From: a virus
Lineage: Duplodnaviria > Heunggongvirae > Uroviricota > Caudoviricetes
IMG/VR virus record: IMGVR_UViG_2778261534_000007
Coordinates: 1-40,456 of that record
Length of the DNA: 40,456 nucleotides
Direction: 5' to 3' (one strand)
This document shows, in pieces, positions 1 through 40,456 of this stretch (positions are counted from its first letter, which is position 1; each line of letters begins with the position of its first letter). The notes beneath the pieces were generated by a model. The model had not been told where the DNA came from, did no database searches, and saw nothing but the letters and a program-made list of their open reading frames with translations. Both the position numbers and the translations under genes were made by a program.

Positions 1-1248
1 ATGGCACTGAATATTCCATTCAGAAATGCGTACTATCGTTTTGCATCCAGTTACTCATTTCTCTTTTTTATTTCCTGGTCGCTGTGGTGGTCGTTATACG
101 CTATTTGGCTGAAAGGACATCTAGGGTTGACAGGGACGGAATTAGGTACACTTTATTCGGTCAACCAGTTTACCAGCATTCTATTTATGATGTTCTACGG
201 CATCGTTCAGGATAAACTCGGTCTGAAGAAACCGCTCATCTGGTGTATGAGTTTCATCCTGGTCTTGACCGGACCGTTTATGATTTACGTTTATGAACCG
301 TTACTGCAAAGCAATTTTTCTGTAGGTCTAATTCTGGGGGCGCTATTTTTTGGCTTGGGGTATCTGGCGGGATGCGGTTTGCTTGATAGCTTCACCGAAA
401 AAATGGCGCGAAATTTTCATTTCGAATATGGAACAGCGCGCGCCTGGGGATCTTTTGGCTATGCTATTGGCGCGTTCTTTGCCGGCATATTTTTTAGTAT
501 CAGTCCCCATATCAACTTCTGGTTGGTCTCGCTATTTGGCGCTGTATTTATGATGATCAACATGCGTTTTAAAGATAAGGATCACCAGTGCGTAGCGGCA
601 GATGCGGGAGGGGTAAAAAAAGAGGATTTTATCGCAGTTTTCAAGGATCGAAACTTCTGGGTTTTCGTCATATTTATTGTGGGGACGTGGTCTTTCTATA
701 ACATTTTTGATCAACAACTTTTTCCTGTCTTTTATGCAGGTTTATTCGAATCACACGATGTAGGAACGCGCCTGTATGGTTATCTCAACTCATTCCAGGT
801 GGTACTCGAAGCGCTGTGCATGGCGATTATTCCTTTCTTTGTGAATCGGGTAGGGCCAAAAAATGCATTACTTATCGGAGTTGTGATTATGGCGTTGCGT
901 ATCCTTTCCTGCGCGCTGTTCGTTAACCCCTGGATTATTTCATTAGTGAAGTTGTTACATGCCATTGAGGTTCCACTTTGTGTCATATCCGTCTTCAAAT
1001 ACAGCGTGGCAAACTTTGATAAGCGCCTGTCGTCGACGATCTTTCTGATTGGTTTTCAAATTGCCAGTTCGCTTGGGATTGTGCTGCTTTCAACGCCGAC
1101 TGGGATACTCTTTGACCACGCAGGCTACCAGACAGTTTTCTTCGCAATTTCGGGTATTGTCTGCCTGATGTTGCTATTTGGCATTTTCTTCTTGAGTAAA
1201 AAACGCGAGCAAATAGTTATGGAAACGCCTGTACCTTCAGCAATATAG
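1..1248 (+). CDS. cscB: LacY-family oligosaccharide:H+ symporter (sucrose permease CscB-like), 415 aa
   Basis: Full-length ORF with ATG at base 1; 12-TM hydrophobic profile and LacY-family similarity across the length; N-terminus MALNIPFRNAYYRF matches my recollection of CscB (from memory, unverified). Codon usage is host-like, not phage-like. Confidence 0.8.
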   Translation: MALNIPFRNAYYRFASSYSFLFFISWSLWWSLYAIWLKGHLGLTGTELGTLYSVNQFTSILFMMFYGIVQDKLGLKKPLIWCMSFILVLTGPFMIYVYEPLLQSNFSVGLILGALFFGLGYLAGCGLLDSFTEKMARNFHFEYGTARAWGSFGYAIGAFFAGIFFSISPHINFWLVSLFGAVFMMINMRFKDKDHQCVAADAGGVKKEDFIAVFKDRNFWVFVIFIVGTWSFYNIFDQQLFPVFYAGLFESHDVGTRLYGYLNSFQVVLEALCMAIIPFFVNRVGPKNALLIGVVIMALRILSCALFVNPWIISLVKLLHAIEVPLCVISVFKYSVANFDKRLSSTIFLIGFQIASSLGIVLLSTPTGILFDHAGYQTVFFAISGIVCLMLLFGIFFLSKKREQIVMETPVPSAI

Positions 1249-6189: not shown

Positions 6190-7069
6190 CCTCCAGTTTC
6201 GCTTTGCATTCTATGTAAATGGCTTGTATGTTCTGCTGCAATTTCATTCCAGATGTCAGGCGATATGCTTCTGCAAAATATCTCTTCAAATCATCCATGT
6301 TTTCAGACTGAGCCATTTCATCACAAAGAAGTTGTGCTTTATCCGTTATTTCCTGCTGGCGTTTCCGTTCATCTTCGCGGATATCTTCCTCTGATTTGTG
6401 CGGCATAACTGGTTCCTGATGCATACCTTCATCTTCGTTAAGCAGGTGAATGGCATTATCCAGTCGCTGGGCTTTAGGCCAGTATTTGCTGGCGCGTTTA
6501 ACTATTGTTTTACGCGCCATCTCTTCCCAGAATGTCTTCCACGGTCCATTCTTTGCCTTGCTCGTTGCTTCCACAGCTTTAATTTCTGCCAGACTCATTT
6601 CTTCAGTGAGGTAGTCACCATCTGCTGTTTTAACCGTACAATAACCACCAACAATAGAGCCTCGCTCACCAAATGCGTTGTATTTGTGGGTTGGTGCTGA
6701 ATCAAGGCCGTTTGATTCATAGGTGTCGTTTGAGTACACCAGTTTGCATTGCCCCCACTTAATTGATCCTGTCGATTGCGCAAGATGAAGTAATCCCATG
6801 TAACTGATATCAAGGCAAACCATGCCGTCGCGAGGAACCAGATAAGCCAGTTTGCTGGCCGGGTTTAAGGTGATGCCGATCGCCGCAACATTGATGATGG
6901 CGTTCTGTGCGCTGGTTGGATTTGCCAGTGCCGTTTTAGCCAGGTAATCATTTTTCTGGAAATACTGAATTGCAAACTGGCTTTCCTTAGCCCATGTCAC
7001 CGTCTGTTCAGTCAATGCTCCGCAGAATAACTGCTCCTGCTGTTTAACGAATTCAACGATATTGCTCAT
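6167..7069 (-). CDS. recT: RecT-family single-strand annealing recombinase (300 aa)
   Basis: RecT-family similarity across the length (NVAAIGITLNPASKLAYLVPRDG...); located in the position of lambda bet. Confidence 0.8.
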   Translation of the reverse strand: MSNIVEFVKQQEQLFCGALTEQTVTWAKESQFAIQYFQKNDYLAKTALANPTSAQNAIINVAAIGITLNPASKLAYLVPRDGMVCLDISYMGLLHLAQSTGSIKWGQCKLVYSNDTYESNGLDSAPTHKYNAFGERGSIVGGYCTVKTADGDYLTEEMSLAEIKAVEATSKAKNGPWKTFWEEMARKTIVKRASKYWPKAQRLDNAIHLLNEDEGMHQEPVMPHKSEEDIREDERKRQQEITDKAQLLCDEMAQSENMDDLKRYFAEAYRLTSGMKLQQNIQAIYIECKAKLEVASEQTI

Positions 7070-7377
7070 GCAGCTTCTCCAAAAATGTGTCTGCGTTTAA
7101 ATATTGCGAAGGCATATTCAGCCTTAACTCTTTCGGTTATTGCATCCCAGAACCATTCAGCGGCTTTTTCCTGATAGTTACAGTCATCATCTTCCAGCCA
7201 GTCGATAGCGTCCTTAGTGTGTTCATCTGGTTTATATGAGCGAAGCATTTCGCTTATTGGGTCGCAACGTTTGCAGAGGCGATCAACTTCACTGTTAATT
7301 CGTTCGTAATCTTCATCAGTAAAACTTGCGATTATTTGCGATATTTCACGCTTATCATTCAGAGTCAGAATCATCAT
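7066..7377 (-). CDS. Hypothetical acidic phage protein upstream of recT (103 aa)
   Basis: ORF overlapping the recT start by 4 nt; acidic, Trp-rich; no family recognised. Confidence 0.5.
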   Translation of the reverse strand: MMILTLNDKREISQIIASFTDEDYERINSEVDRLCKRCDPISEMLRSYKPDEHTKDAIDWLEDDDCNYQEKAAEWFWDAITERVKAEYAFAIFKRRHIFGEAA

Positions 7378-7458
7378 CTTTCTCCTGTTCTTTGTGCTGA
7401 TTGAGCATTTTGTTCATCTGACGAATGAATTCTTCGTCTGACCAGTTATCTGTAAAAC

Positions 7459-7581
7459 TCATTTCCTGCGATACCACGGAAGGTTGATAGCTGATTTCAT
7501 CGCTTTATTTGCTTCAAGCCACATTTTTGAATCACCAATAAATCTGGCTATTACTGCTTTGTTTTGTGCCGCACGAAGCAT
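7459..7581 (-). CDS. Kil-like small protein (40 aa), below the ORF-track cutoff
   Basis: ATG 14 nt after the cIII stop; translation MLRAAQNKAVIARFIGDSKMW... resembles my recollection of lambda Kil (IATFIGDEKM). Confidence 0.4.
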   Translation of the reverse strand: MLRAAQNKAVIARFIGDSKMWLEANKAMKSAINLPWYRRK

Positions 7582-7595
7582 CTGGTGATTAATGG

Positions 7596-7730
7596 CTATT
7601 TCATTGCGCATAACGCCTCCAGTTGTTTCTTTGCTGCTCTAATTAATTGTTTAACTCGGCGTGATAATTCAGATTCGTGCGGGTAGAAAGCGGACATGAC
7701 GCCGCTACCCGCGAGCTGAAAGTGCATCAT
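7596..7730 (-). CDS. cIII: cIII-like protease inhibitor (44 aa)
   Basis: MMHFQLAGSGVMSAFYPHESELSRRVKQLIRAAKKQLEAL resembles lambdoid cIII; AAGGAG RBS before the ATG at 7730. The longer listed ORF (to 7835) runs through a terminator hairpin and is rejected. Confidence 0.7.
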   Translation of the reverse strand: MMHFQLAGSGVMSAFYPHESELSRRVKQLIRAAKKQLEALCAMK

Positions 7731-7793
7731 GGGTAACTCCTTATATTTGATTGCATAACGAAAACGCCTCGAGTGAAGCGTTATTGGTATGCA

Positions 7794-7820
7794 TATAAAA
7801 AGGCCCTCACACTGGAGGGC
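7794..7820 (-). terminator. Intrinsic terminator (tL1-like) between the 156-aa gene and cIII
   Basis: Minus-strand hairpin GCCCTC-CAGTGT-GAGGGC followed by CTTTTTAT. Confidence 0.5.
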
Positions 7821-7924
7821 AAAGAAGATTTTCAATAATCAGAACAAGTCGGCTCCTGTTTAGTTACGAGCGACATTGCTCCGTGTATTCACTCGTTGGA
7901 ATGAATACACAGTGCTTATTTGTA

Positions 7925-8395
7925 CTAATAAAATACCCAATTTTCTGTTTCTTGGTTGTGTCCAAAGTTATATTCAATATCTGGTGTTGATGTATCAATA
8001 TTCTTCATCCCATCAACAAGAGTTGATACAACAGCCAAATCTTGTTTGATTCTCATTAAATGGTATTTCTTCCGGCGCAATAAACTTTCAATGGCAAGTT
8101 TCTTCGTTGGGAATGCAAAAGATCTTTCTGCATTTTTTGCTACTTTCTTAATTGCATATCTATTTCTCTTTTGTTTCCATTCCTGTAACCACTGATTTGG
8201 TGCTGGTTTAAAATTAACAATCCAATGCGCAGGAACCAACCATGCATAATGCTCTGTCTGATGAAAAGCTATATATTGAAGTGCGAATATTTTGATTCCA
8301 TCTTCTTCAACTGTCGCCTGGAATCTCCAGAAAACAGGCATTCCATCATGTTCAGTTTCTGATTCAGGAAAAGGTACGCTCCATGATTTTGTCAT
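7925..8395 (-). CDS. Hypothetical AT-rich accessory protein (156 aa) in the N-cIII (sieB/ral) slot
   Basis: ORF with markedly lower GC than the flanking N and cIII genes; followed by a 9-bp-stem inverted repeat (7883..7910); no family recognised. Confidence 0.6.
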   Translation of the reverse strand: MTKSWSVPFPESETEHDGMPVFWRFQATVEEDGIKIFALQYIAFHQTEHYAWLVPAHWIVNFKPAPNQWLQEWKQKRNRYAIKKVAKNAERSFAFPTKKLAIESLLRRKKYHLMRIKQDLAVVSTLVDGMKNIDTSTPDIEYNFGHNQETENWVFY

Positions 8396-8403
8396 ATCTC
8401 ACC

Positions 8404-8730
8404 TCAAATAAGTGGCTTGCTGCCTAATTTCATTTTCTGGCGACCAACACAAGTCACACCCATTTCACTGCGTGGCTTGCTGTACCATGTGCGCTGATTC
8501 TTGCGCTCAATACGTTGCAGGTTGCTTTCAATCTGTTCGTGGTATTCAGCCAGCACCGTAAGGTCTATCGGATTCAGTGCGCTTTCTACTCGTGATTTCG
8601 GTTTGCGATTCAGCGAGAGAATTGGGCGGTTAACTGGTTTTGCGCTTACCCCAACCAACAGGGGATTTGCTGCTTTCCATTGAGCCTGTTTAGCTGCGCG
8701 GCGTTCGCGGCGGCGTGTTTGTGCATCCAT
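8404..8730 (-). CDS. N: Antitermination protein N (lambda-type)
   Basis: Near-identity to lambda N as recalled (MDAQTRRRERRA.KQAQWKAANPLLVGVSAKPVNRPILSLNRKPKSRVESALNPIDLTVLAEYH...). Confidence 0.9.
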   Translation of the reverse strand: MDAQTRRRERRAAKQAQWKAANPLLVGVSAKPVNRPILSLNRKPKSRVESALNPIDLTVLAEYHEQIESNLQRIERKNQRTWYSKPRSEMGVTCVGRQKMKLGSKPLI

Positions 8731-8998
8731 CTGGATTCTCCTGTCAGTTAGCTTTGGTGGTGTGGTGGCTGGTAGTCTAGCTCCAGCTTGTTGAGTCTCA
8801 TTCGGAGGGGTATAACCGGCACCCCAGCGATTTTTCCATGCGACAACGTGCGCGTTATGGCGGCCTTATCGCCCGCGGCTCCCCATCTCGTCCACGCTAT
8901 TGCTAGCGTTGGGAGCGCTTCACCGCTCAACAGTAGGTAAGCACTTGCCAGTGACTAGCTGGCTTCACCACACACCAAAGCCTTCTGCTTTGAATGCT

Positions 8999-9029
8999 GC
9001 CCTTCTTCAGGGCTTAATTTTTAAGAGCG
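8999..9029 (-). promoter_or_regulatory. nutL (boxA CGCTCTTAA + boxB GCCCTGAAGAAGGGC)
   Basis: Reverse complement reads CGCTCTTAAAAATTAAGCCCTGAAGAAGGGC, the lambda nutL sequence; boxB at 8999..9013, boxA at 9021..9029. Confidence 0.8.
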
Positions 9030-9068
9030 TCACCTTCATGGTGGTTAGTGCGTCCTGCTGATGGCTAA

Positions 9069-9097
9069 ATAGTACGATTTGTACTTTATCGAGTCAA
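9069..9097 (-). promoter_or_regulatory. PL-like early leftward promoter (-35 TTGACT, 17-bp spacer, -10 TACTAT) with flanking operator-like TTTGTA/TACAAA repeats
   Basis: Sigma70 consensus-like hexamers with 17-bp spacing upstream of nutL on the minus strand. Confidence 0.55.
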
Positions 9098-9160
9098 TAC
9101 AAAATGTTCTAAATATAATTAGTTTTTTATAACGTTTTGTATTTAATGGGTTTATAATTT

Positions 9161-9190
9161 GGAAAAAGAAAACCCGACGCTAAGGTCGGG
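9161..9190 (-). terminator. Intrinsic terminator downstream of cI
   Basis: Minus-strand hairpin CCCGAC-CTTAGC-GTCGGG followed by TTTTCTTTTTCC. Confidence 0.55.
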
Positions 9191-9222
9191 TTATTGTTGT
9201 GTGTTTTAGAGTGGTGAGGCTG

Positions 9223-9882
9223 TTAACTAAATGTCTCTTCAGGCCACTGGCTGGCGATAACTTTCCCTACTACGGAACAGCTATCATTGCATGGAATCAT
9301 TGGATATTGCGGGTTTAGTGGCTGTAGGAACACCTGACCGCTATCCCTGATCAGTTTCTTGAAGGTAAACTCGTCACCACCAAGTCTGGCTATGCAGAAA
9401 TCACCTGGCTCAACAGCCTGCTCGGGGTCAACGAGAATTAACATCCCGTCAGGAAAGCTTGGCTTCGATCCTGTTGGCGCGGTCATGGAATTACCTTCAA
9501 CTTCAAGCCAAAACGCACAATCACTGGCTTTTTTGGTTGTGCTTACCCATCTCTCCGCATCACCTTTGGTAAAGGTTCTAAGCTCAGGCGAGAACATCCC
9601 GGCCTGAACATGAGAAAAAACAGGGTACTCATATTGTTTTTTAACGGGGGCAGATGAGTATTCGCCAACAGGTGAAAATGTACCGTCGTGGTTGAATGAG
9701 ACGTTATCAATACCAAGGTATTTAAACACCACACCAATCTCGTCAAGAGATGGATGACGAGATCCGCGCAACCAGTGACCAATTCCACCCTGCGTCATAC
9801 CAAGCTCTTCAGCTAACTTCTCTTGAGTTATGCCGAGCTCTTTCATTCTGGATCTAGCCAGTTCATACCATTTCATTTTCAT
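9223..9882 (-). CDS. cI: CI-type prophage repressor (HTH N-domain plus LexA/S24-like autocleavage C-domain)
   Basis: C-terminal ~150 aa match lambda cI as recalled ([22 protein letters not shown]...[48 protein letters not shown]...); N-terminal HTH ([23 protein letters not shown]) differs from lambda. Start at 9882 or 9876; the listed ORF start (9924) is a TTG extension. Confidence 0.85.
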
Positions 9883-10641: not shown

Positions 10642-11286
10642 ATGACATACGAAAATGACAAATTCCAGGTTCTGAAGAGCATGAAGGTGCCAGATGATTT
10701 TAAATCAAATGGCTTTGTTTATGTGCTTTCGAATGAGTGCATGCCGGGAATTTATAAGATTGGGATGACTAAGCATTCACCAGAAGTTAGGGCTAAAGAA
10801 ATTTCAGCCTCTACTGGCGTTCCTAAGCCATTTAAGGTGATAGCAGCCTTTCATTCAAATAATCCCGCATCAGATGAAAAACTTATTCATAAAGCCTTTG
10901 CAAAAGAGAGGCTTAGTGATAATCGAGAGTTTTTCAAGCTTGAAGATAATGATCTTTATGAATCTCTAAATGAAATAAGGGCGCTGGTTGGCCCTGAAAG
11001 AAATGGCGAGACGGCAGAATACGCAATTTACGACTCATTCATTTCTTTTCGCCATGAAAATGAGCTTGATCTTAATGAGGAGCTTATAGAGCAAGGTCTG
11101 GGTAGTGTAGTTGGTCATCTTCCTGCGGTGAAAAATTTCCTTATTCGCGCCGGAATTGATTACGCGAAGCAACTGATAAGCAAATATAACTCATCGATAG
11201 TTATTAATACAGATGGCAGTGTGGTGATGGTTAAGTCTCTTGAAGCCCAATGCTTTGATGCGGAGGTTGGAAATGAGCCTTGCTGA
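10642..11286 (+). CDS. T5orf172 / GIY-YIG-like domain protein (214 aa), inserted between cII and O
   Basis: N-terminal motif GFVYVLSNECMPGIYKIGMT (GIY...YIG-like spacing) with a downstream conserved Arg and acidic residues; AGGAG RBS; more AT-rich than its neighbours; 3' end overlaps the O start by 14 nt. Confidence 0.6.
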   Translation: MTYENDKFQVLKSMKVPDDFKSNGFVYVLSNECMPGIYKIGMTKHSPEVRAKEISASTGVPKPFKVIAAFHSNNPASDEKLIHKAFAKERLSDNREFFKLEDNDLYESLNEIRALVGPERNGETAEYAIYDSFISFRHENELDLNEELIEQGLGSVVGHLPAVKNFLIRAGIDYAKQLISKYNSSIVINTDGSVVMVKSLEAQCFDAEVGNEPC

Positions 11287-38055: not shown

Positions 38056-39054
38056 TTATATTAAATGTTTTGTTATTTTATTCTTTGATAGTAAATAACA
38101 AATTAAAGCTGAAATTGCGAAATATATTATGGTGAGTACAGGTATCATATACCATGCATTAACAGGACTGTAGCCAAACTTTATCTCTCTGACTAATATA
38201 AAATGTATGAAATAGATACCAAAAGATAGTCCTGAAATTGTCCTTATAAAGGAAAGCACATGATCAGATACACGATCCTTAACTGAAATGCAAAACATGA
38301 ACGTGAAGATAGCACTTGCAAAAACAAATGGAGCAGTATTTTTAAAGAAAAGCTGTTCCGGCCTACCAACCTTGCTGGACCACCATATTGTAGCTAAAAC
38401 AGTAGCCACGCTAAAGAAGACAACAAGCAGGAAATAAATTATCCAACTAATAGTTGAAATTCTGTCTCTATATCTTCTTAGTATAGCGCCAACAAGAATG
38501 TATATGCCATTCTCTGAAATAAAATCCAACTTAAGCCATGTAAGGCTAAACATTGTTCTGTGAATGTACGGAACGAGTGAGTGAACGTAAAACAACATCG
38601 CTATTATCATCAGTATATAATACGATGGCAAATTCTTAAGTGGATTACTTATTATTGGTAAAAACATATACATGCAAATATATGTATACATAAACCATAA
38701 ATGGACCTCTGAATGTTGAAATAATGACGATATTTTAAGTCCGTTATAGTGATTATTATATAAAAAATAAAACAGCCACCAAAACATAAAAGGAATAAAG
38801 AGTTTTCTAACCCCTTTTGCTAAATGATTTGAAGCCTCTATCTCCTTTTTATAATAAAGGTATCCTGTTATTATAAAGAATAACCCAATACATTGTCGTG
38901 TAAATGAACTATACGTTGTTATAGTATTCCATGAGTCGCTGAATGCAAGGAAGTAAGCTCCTGACGCATGTAACATAACCACAAGAAAGATAGCTAAACT
39001 TCTTGCTATATGCACTTCATTTAACTCTATTCTATTTTGTCGAATATCAGACAT
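38056..39054 (-). CDS. Integral-membrane acyltransferase (acyltransferase-3 family; O-antigen acetylase Oac-like), 332 aa
   Basis: About 10 predicted TM helices; N-terminal motif RSLAIFLVVMLHA typical of the acyltransferase-3 family; very AT-rich; located between tailspike and integrase, where seroconversion genes sit in P22-like phages. Confidence 0.75.
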   Translation of the reverse strand: MSDIRQNRIELNEVHIARSLAIFLVVMLHASGAYFLAFSDSWNTITTYSSFTRQCIGLFFIITGYLYYKKEIEASNHLAKGVRKLFIPFMFWWLFYFLYNNHYNGLKISSLFQHSEVHLWFMYTYICMYMFLPIISNPLKNLPSYYILMIIAMLFYVHSLVPYIHRTMFSLTWLKLDFISENGIYILVGAILRRYRDRISTISWIIYFLLVVFFSVATVLATIWWSSKVGRPEQLFFKNTAPFVFASAIFTFMFCISVKDRVSDHVLSFIRTISGLSFGIYFIHFILVREIKFGYSPVNAWYMIPVLTIIYFAISALICYLLSKNKITKHLI

Positions 39055-39298: not shown

Positions 39299-40456
39299 TC
39301 ACTCCACCTTTTCATCAATCCAGTCCGCCCACCACTGCATCATTTCTCTGCGCTTATCGAGATACTGAGCATGGTTGTAAATCCCGCGCACAGAACCGCC
39401 GTTGGCATGTGCCAGTTGCACTTCAATAGCATCAGCAGGCCATTCGTGCTCGTTCATAATCGTGCTGAATTCATGCCTGAATCCGTGACCGCTTTCCAGA
39501 CCCTCATAGCCGATTTGTTTGATCACAAGCAGTACCGCGTTCTCGCAGATTGGCTTCTTCTTATCGTTGCGACCGGCAAAAACAAACTCTGATACTGGTT
39601 TGGTGATTGAGCTTAGCGTAGTGAGAAGTTCAACCACCTGGTCTGACATAGGAACCACATGAATTTTGCGTCCCTTCATCACACTGGCGTCGATGGTGAT
39701 AATCCTGTTTTCAAAATCGACGTTCTTCCATAGCATAGAACGAAGCTCTTTTGTTCTGAGGGCTGTGTAGCGTAAAACTTTGGTCGCAATGAGCGATACG
39801 ATGCTTCCTGAAAATGTTGCCAGTGCTTTGTTAAATGCCGGGATCTGGTCTGCAGGAAGAAACGGGAAGTTTTTCTTGCGGTATCCCTTCATGGCGTCAG
39901 CAAGGTCAGGTGCCGGGTTATATTTAGCCCTACCAGTGACAATAGCGTAACGGAAAACCTCGCCGCATCTTCTGCGTGCTTTGTTGGCTCGCTCCATTGC
40001 CCCGCGATCTTCAAATCTGCGGATTACTTCCAGCAGTTGCATCGGCTCAATATCCTGAATTTCAAGGCCGCCGATGATAGGTAAAATGTCGTCATCAAAC
40101 ATTTTTGCAAGTTCAGTCGCATAGGCGGCTGACCAGACTTGCTTCTTGTGCTCGTACCATTCCTTGTAAATCGCACTAAAGGAATTGTTGTTAGACGAAG
40201 CCTTTTTCGCCTTTACCGGATCGATGCCAACCGAGATGTCTTTCCTCGCAGTCCATGCCTTATCCCTTGCCTCCTGCAAAGTCATAAGCGGATATTTTCC
40301 GACGGTCAGGATTTTCTCCTTACCGTCAATCTTGTAGCGAAGCTGCCATACCTTTTTCCCTGATACAGGAACATAAAGGTACAGGCCATTACCATCGAGA
40401 AGGCGGTATGGTTTTTCTTTCGGCTTTGCTGCCTCAATCTGCTTAACGGTGAGCAT
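39299..40456 (-). CDS. intS: Tyrosine site-specific integrase (P4/IntS family), 385 aa
   Basis: SAM-like and catalytic domains (R...HGFRHEFSTIM...Y region); start codon is the last base of the window, so the promoter and attL/argW lie outside. Confidence 0.9.
   Translation of the reverse strand: MLTVKQIEAAKPKEKPYRLLDGNGLYLYVPVSGKKVWQLRYKIDGKEKILTVGKYPLMTLQEARDKAWTARKDISVGIDPVKAKKASSNNNSFSAIYKEWYEHKKQVWSAAYATELAKMFDDDILPIIGGLEIQDIEPMQLLEVIRRFEDRGAMERANKARRRCGEVFRYAIVTGRAKYNPAPDLADAMKGYRKKNFPFLPADQIPAFNKALATFSGSIVSLIATKVLRYTALRTKELRSMLWKNVDFENRIITIDASVMKGRKIHVVPMSDQVVELLTTLSSITKPVSEFVFAGRNDKKKPICENAVLLVIKQIGYEGLESGHGFRHEFSTIMNEHEWPADAIEVQLAHANGGSVRGIYNHAQYLDKRREMMQWWADWIDEKVE

Follow-up and report, generated by a model that had tools for sequence, protein, structure and literature searches.

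A conserved gene of the HK97 gp45 family, probably transcribed together with N, occupies the variable slot between N and cIII of a lambdoid phage

The DNA analyzed here is a stretch of 40,456 nucleotides (nt) from a virus of the Caudoviricetes (IMG/VR record IMGVR_UViG_2778261534_000007), referred to below as the window. Between the genes for the antiterminator N and for cIII it carries, on the minus strand, an open reading frame (ORF) of 156 amino acids (7925..8395), which is the subject of this report. An earlier note, made from the sequence alone, had placed an AT-rich 156-amino-acid gene in this interval and had proposed that it was acquired horizontally. The reading frame stands as described: it begins with an ATG codon, and its two neighbors belong to the Pfam families of N and cIII (Table 1), past which genes for Kil, RecT and Sipho_Gp157 follow. 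The GAGG core of its Shine-Dalgarno sequence is positioned 6 nt 5' of the ATG codon and overlaps the stop codon of N (8406..8404), which is separated from the start of the ORF by a gap of 8 nt. The guanine-plus-cytosine (GC) content of the ORF is 35.7% (27.4% at third codon positions), compared with 50.5% for N, 47.8% for cIII and 46.7% for the window as a whole, and it ranks in the lowest 3.3% among segments of 471 nt. Hence, the clearly lower GC content relative to the flanking genes is confirmed, and the proposed horizontal acquisition is supported by a mobile cassette with a foreign base composition.

The encoded protein matches the profile of PHROG 1636, a family listed as being of "unknown function", over its entire length (E-value 5.4e-112; residues 1-156 on positions 1-156 of 156). 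It is identical to the product of an unannotated ORF of phage H-19B (100% amino acid identity) and nearly so to ST933Wp19 of phage 933W (NP_049479; 99.4%) and to gp45 of phage HK97 (NP_037731; 98.7%); these relatives have the same length and the same position after N. We therefore refer to the gene as gp45; the "gp45" of the OLD preprint belongs to phage HK578 and is not the gene considered here. The earlier note had spoken of an unknown family; the family is catalogued, while its function is unassigned in all sources, each of which annotates the gene as hypothetical. It has been such a "hypothetical" ever since the HK97, 933W and H-19B sequences were determined and is thus not a discovery. 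The gp45 gene is present in 83 phage records, mostly of Shiga toxin (Stx)-converting phages, and in 563 of 5426 complete Escherichia coli genomes. Its carriers include the Shiga toxin phages 933W, H-19B, BP-4795 and Stx2-86 and, next to HK97, the isolated phages Huey, Dewey and CurroJimenez_Bas106, while homologs with 55-85% identity are found in Pectobacterium, Brenneria, Cronobacter, Rosenbergiella and metagenomes.

Purifying selection on this gene is strong. The ratio of nonsynonymous to synonymous substitution rates (dN/dS) is 0.08-0.13 for close pairs of gp45 homologs; for pairs with 63-84% amino acid identity, the proportion of synonymous differences is saturated (pS 0.8-0.9) and that of nonsynonymous differences is only 0.10-0.24 (pN). 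Forty alignment columns are invariant across 20 homologs from Enterobacterales and metagenomes. Judged by its sequence conservation, the ORF is certainly a real, functional and strongly conserved phage gene.

Table 1. Features of the N-cIII interval and its surroundings in the window
Feature	Position	Strand	Remarks
pL promoter and nutL	8999..9097	-	-35 at 9097-9092, -10 at 9074-9069; boxA at 9029-9021, boxB at 9013-8999; leader identical to that of lambda
N, lambda-type antiterminator gene	8404..8730	-	PF11438, E-value 5e-25; last 54 nt are part of the gp45 cassette
Low-GC cassette common to gp45-bearing phages	7916..8457	-	Left junction 9 nt past the stop codon, where lambda identity resumes; right junction inside N
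Shine-Dalgarno sequence GAGGTGAG	8398..8405	-	Read from the sequence; identical in HK97 and 933W
gp45, protein-coding sequence, 156 amino acids	7925..8395	-	ATG start; member of the HK97 gp45 / 933W ST933Wp19 / PHROG 1636 family
RNA hairpin, 12 bp, GUGUAUUCAUUC-CAAC-GAGUGAAUACAC	7883..7910	-	At the junction of cassette and backbone; identical in lambda downstream of ral
PreS/LPR1 small RNA homolog	7796..7884	-	Approximate extent, inferred from the ~88-nt size in lambda and the position of the U-run
Intrinsic terminator tL2a, GCCCTC-CAGTGT-GAGGGC plus U-run	7797..7820	-	Stem 7820..7803, followed by CTTTTT; 3' end of PreS
Second terminator-like hairpin	7763..7782	-	Just upstream of cIII; in lambda downstream of ea10
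cIII	7596..7733	-	PF08134, E-value 2e-30

The gene is part of a low-GC cassette whose borders can be drawn by comparison with other phages. This cassette takes the place of the sieB-orf28-ral segment of lambda, with the 3' end of N on one side and the PreS/tL2a element on the other, and its right junction is located 54 nt before the N stop codon. The view that this is a variable lambdoid slot is thereby upheld. With the lambda segment, gp45 shares these borders on both sides and the operon, but neither sequence nor family similarity. The last 54 nt of N (8404..8457, minus strand) are identical to DNA within a noncoding spacer of 58 nt; in HK97 and 933W, this spacer comes after N genes that are unrelated to the one in the window (loci L002 and L001, 2943..2992). 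In contrast to the window, in which gp45 follows a lambda-type N gene after the gap of 8 nt, HK97 and 933W thus combine a different N gene with a 54-nt remnant of the lambda-type gene. The identity of this remnant in both phages indicates that the gp45 cassette once traveled with a lambda-type N, and that the remnant was left behind when N was exchanged. Overall, the gene comes directly after N-type genes of four kinds, which in the case of homologs with 84% and 73% identity belong to yet other families; in a Pectobacterium prophage, the homolog is instead found just before xis-int.

The two structures downstream of gp45 that the earlier note had listed are both real: the inverted repeat at 7883..7910 contains nine perfect pairs and forms 12 as RNA (including one G-U pair), and the intrinsic terminator noted at 7794..7820 consists of a stem and a T-run. 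The 151 nt of RNA downstream of the ORF fold far more stably than expected (z = -5.1), and none of 200 shuffled sequences folded as well. The description of the gene as flanked by hairpins holds on this downstream side; on the upstream side there is no hairpin in the 8-nt gap to N. Alignment with lambda and HK97 identified everything leftwards from 7915 as conserved backbone. Of the 113 nt at 7803..7915, 112 agree with the stretch that separates ral from ea10 in lambda, the one substitution being an A for G at 7832; directly after the terminator stem, the window has CT in place of GA. The annotation of HK97 places a putative terminator at the equivalent tL2a site, and there, too, the PreS/tL2a element is positioned downstream of gp45. 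The likeness to the lambda element extends to the GC-rich stem, to the U tail and to the location, which in both cases is where the slot gene ends. By this alignment, the hairpin and the terminator are a separate backbone element, PreS/LPR1 plus tL2a, and not features of gp45. We therefore rejected a model in which gp45 would be a self-contained moron with its own terminator and hairpin, since both are backbone sequence shared with lambda. Because it lies in this conserved backbone, the first 80 nt of the stretch 7836-8403 are four times as widespread as the gp45 gene itself and occur in 2235 genomes of E. coli.

In lambda, LPR1/PreS is an Hfq-dependent small RNA with forms of ~88 and ~68 nt whose 3' end is tL2a; it is made in the lytic cycle but not in the lysogen, and it raises the translation of DnaN in support of phage replication (10.1101/2024.10.31.621285). 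Hfq binding, dnaN regulation and the accumulation of the ~88- and ~68-nt forms are known experimentally for lambda PreS, whereas the copy in the window is known by its sequence. Rfam, which holds no model for PreS, returned no family in 7300..9400. The 12-bp hairpin ends, with its 3' base, just where an 88-nt PreS should begin, and it may, as its position suggests, help in the release or processing of PreS. Lambda ral, a gene with an early counter-restriction function, also carries PreS in its 3' untranslated region. PreS would be cut from the 3' end of whatever gene fills the slot, and the new reading of the hairpins matters in that it makes the slot gene the source of the PreS precursor transcript. 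The second terminator-like hairpin and its flanks (7763..7793) are also common to lambda; ea10 is cleanly absent from the window, in contrast to 933W, where it lies downstream. At the position of ea10, E. coli M18 and phage PA28 have a gene for a 103-amino-acid "superinfection exclusion protein" instead.

The arrangement of signals on the pL transcript suggests that the slot gene is immediate-early and probably shares its transcript with N. We scanned the DNA for promoters and terminators with consensus patterns, an approach that is blind to Rho-dependent sites. These scans found no terminator-like site between pL/nutL and tL2a (7820), nor did they reveal anything resembling a promoter within N, upstream of gp45. 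The absence of a terminator from pL to tL2a, together with the 8-nt gap after N, argues for transcription of gp45 along with N before antitermination is needed. In lambda, the terminator tL1 is positioned between N and ral and makes ral N-dependent. The earlier note had called the slot gene early and N-dependent; the first part of this description is retained as the probable state of affairs, and the second is unlikely. The proposed immediate-early RNA would comprise pL, nutL, N, gp45 and PreS/tL2a, with a length of ~1.27 kb. Synthesis of the Gp45 protein would then start within minutes after infection or induction, whereas in the lysogen, in which cI represses pL, its gene would be silent.

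The product of the gene is hydrophilic (grand average of hydropathy -0.58), and a Kyte-Doolittle scan found no membrane segment, the highest mean over 19 residues being 0.56. Its isoelectric point (pI) is 9.0; residues 61-130 have a pI of 10.7 and contain 17 lysine or arginine residues, while both ends of the protein are acidic. An AlphaFold2 model computed with an alignment of 70 sequences reached a predicted local distance difference test score (pLDDT) of 96.2 and a predicted template modeling score (pTM) of 0.83, whereas the model obtained from close homologs alone was poor. The former predicts strands at residues 19-30, 33-46 and 50-55, helices at 56-61 and 66-74, a strand at 83-86 and a helix of 33 residues at 98-130. 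Of known folds, small beta-barrels of the Tudor, SH3, KOW or PipX type may come closest, and the protein appears to be without a solved structural relative.

The earlier note had recognized no motif in this protein, and none of the Pfam, NCBIfam, PADLOC and PDB-profile searches revealed a characterized family. Scans of the protein against Pfam and NCBIfam gave nothing above noise, and a Pfam scan of all 70 family members at E-values of both <=0.01 and <=1 revealed no recurrent family. In particular, neither the slot protein nor any of these 70 proteins matched the Ral or Lar_restr_allev families in Pfam, and the slot protein had no match to SieB families in Pfam, NCBIfam or PHROG. A search of PADLOC-DB 2.0 yielded no significant match, only Cas1_II with an E-value of 0.0097 (13 bits over 46 residues). 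The sensitive homology and structure-based searches that the note had proposed were thus run, and matched only PHROGs of unknown function and uncharacterized phage proteins; the Foldseek search of BFVD returned nothing but such proteins, from diverse phages.

An exhaustive profile search collected a wide family of 87 proteins, mostly 130-155 amino acids in length and ~20-25% identical in sequence, that belong to PHROGs 13631 and 25384, which are likewise of unknown function. Common to this wide family are an aromatic-aromatic-basic strand, G33, an "ET" motif (T47), K84, K87, an RFAF strand, A101 and the basic helix. Near-invariance is limited to G33, T47, K87 and A101, a pattern that is more suggestive of a binding protein than of an enzyme. 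The distant homologs are always found in early operons among small ORFs, and their neighbors encode Dam, C5 and MT-A70 methyltransferases, Lar, RecT/YqaJ, RdgC, SSB and xis-int, a neighborhood that is compatible with counter-restriction. Among the closer relatives, a 63% homolog is present in phage Bas81, which has a T1-like gene set and no annotated integrase or repressor, and a 64% homolog is present in the Salmonella phage NX263; each of these two genes leads an operon. In both phages (Bas81, L013 18877..20174; NX263, L005 3001..4298), a gene for a 269-amino-acid ParB-like or "DNA binding" protein starts 11 nt after the gp45 homolog, and the two genes may work together in these T1-like phages.

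We tentatively favor, with a confidence that stops a little short of even, a reading of gp45 as an immediate-early, non-enzymatic binding protein for lytic growth that serves as a counter-defence or host-takeover factor. The gene product would be a small, soluble, non-enzymatic protein in which a beta-sheet domain is combined with a strongly basic segment in the middle and with a long amphipathic helix, and it would bind nucleic acid or a host protein that handles nucleic acid. From these properties and from the position of the gene we infer both the binding mode and a role in the lytic cycle, within which an anti-defence role is possible. Several observations weigh against this reading. The association with methylases and Lar is to be expected of any early-operon gene, and gp45 resembles none of the known anti-defence proteins. 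The basic helix could serve for contacts between proteins instead of binding nucleic acid, the low GC content is typical of lysogenic-conversion morons, and the consensus scans leave room for Rho-dependent termination or for a weak internal promoter. Literature searches aimed at gp45 retrieved nothing on the function, structure or phenotype of any family member. The chief rival, which we regard as possible if on balance doubtful, is a phage-internal role outside the arms race, in which gp45 would be a DNA- or RNA-binding regulator or an accessory of DNA metabolism that adjusts early transcription, recombination, replication or the choice between lysis and lysogeny.

The earlier note had considered the gene a strong candidate for a defence or anti-defence function. 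A defence or superinfection-exclusion protein of the sieB or rex type, made in the lysogen to block other phages, would fit the slot that holds sieB in lambda, the low, moron-like GC content and the frequent occurrence of gp45 in E. coli prophages. However, gp45 is on the cI-repressed pL transcript without a promoter-like site of its own in the consensus scan, its product has no membrane segment, and homologs are present in Bas81 and NX263, all of which argues against a defence role in the prophage. Bas81, moreover, is a phage in which neither an integrase nor a repressor is annotated. No PADLOC match rose above noise, structural relatives occur in diverse phages, and in other prophages gp45 is adjoined by a gene of its own for a "superinfection exclusion protein". 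We consequently disfavor superinfection exclusion and regard prophage defence as improbable. That gp45 might be a small GIY-YIG-type nuclease was suggested by the profile search against PDB sequences, in which the GIY-YIG protein 1zg2 was the top match (E-value 0.51) and aligned weakly with the strand-helix region of the family profile. This hint was not borne out by the structure search, and the GIY-YIG fold with its catalytic Tyr, Arg and Glu residues was not found; the match was rejected, and we consider such a nuclease hardly credible.

Taken further, the reading of gp45 as a binding protein for lytic growth would make its family an unrecognized class of immediate-early effectors with a fold absent from the PDB. 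Their target would be nucleic acid or a conserved host enzyme that acts on it, and binding would either disable a host defence or bring a process of the host under phage control. Such a family would be common to Shiga toxin phages, HK97 and virulent phages of the T1-like type, and more distantly related members would be found in phages of Pseudomonas, of Vibrio and of marine origin; in this extended form we view the proposal as speculative and rather unlikely. About one in 10 complete E. coli genomes and the main Shiga toxin phages carry the gene. A role in counter-defence or host takeover, if borne out, would bear on the spread of Stx phages and on the escape of temperate phages from host immunity. 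As a widespread and conserved protein, Gp45 is a reasonable but unremarkable target for experiment.

Several other features of the window deserve mention. An acidic ORF of 103 amino acids without a Pfam match (7066..7377, minus strand) is positioned between the gene for Kil and that for RecT. A gene for a 214-amino-acid T5orf172/MUG113-domain protein (10642..11286, plus strand; about 39% GC) is inserted between cII and the replication gene O, a site that is empty in lambda, and may be another accessory cassette; a T5orf172/MUG113 gene is likewise found between cII and O in a metagenomic contig (L018). The GC content of the window reaches its minimum (29%) in an Acyl_transf_3 gene (38056..39054, minus strand), possibly a lysogenic-conversion gene of the O-antigen acetylase type. 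It is adjoined by a P4-type integrase gene (39299..40456, minus strand) that ends exactly at the edge of the window. At the opposite end, a gene for a LacY-family sugar symporter (1..1248, plus strand; E-value 1e-193) presumably represents the host flank. The integrase gene is thus located at the far end of the window from the symporter gene and next to the conversion gene, which renders the geometry of the attachment site ambiguous. The rest of the window resembles phage P22, with a P22 portal protein, a tailspike head-binding domain and Arc/Mnt.
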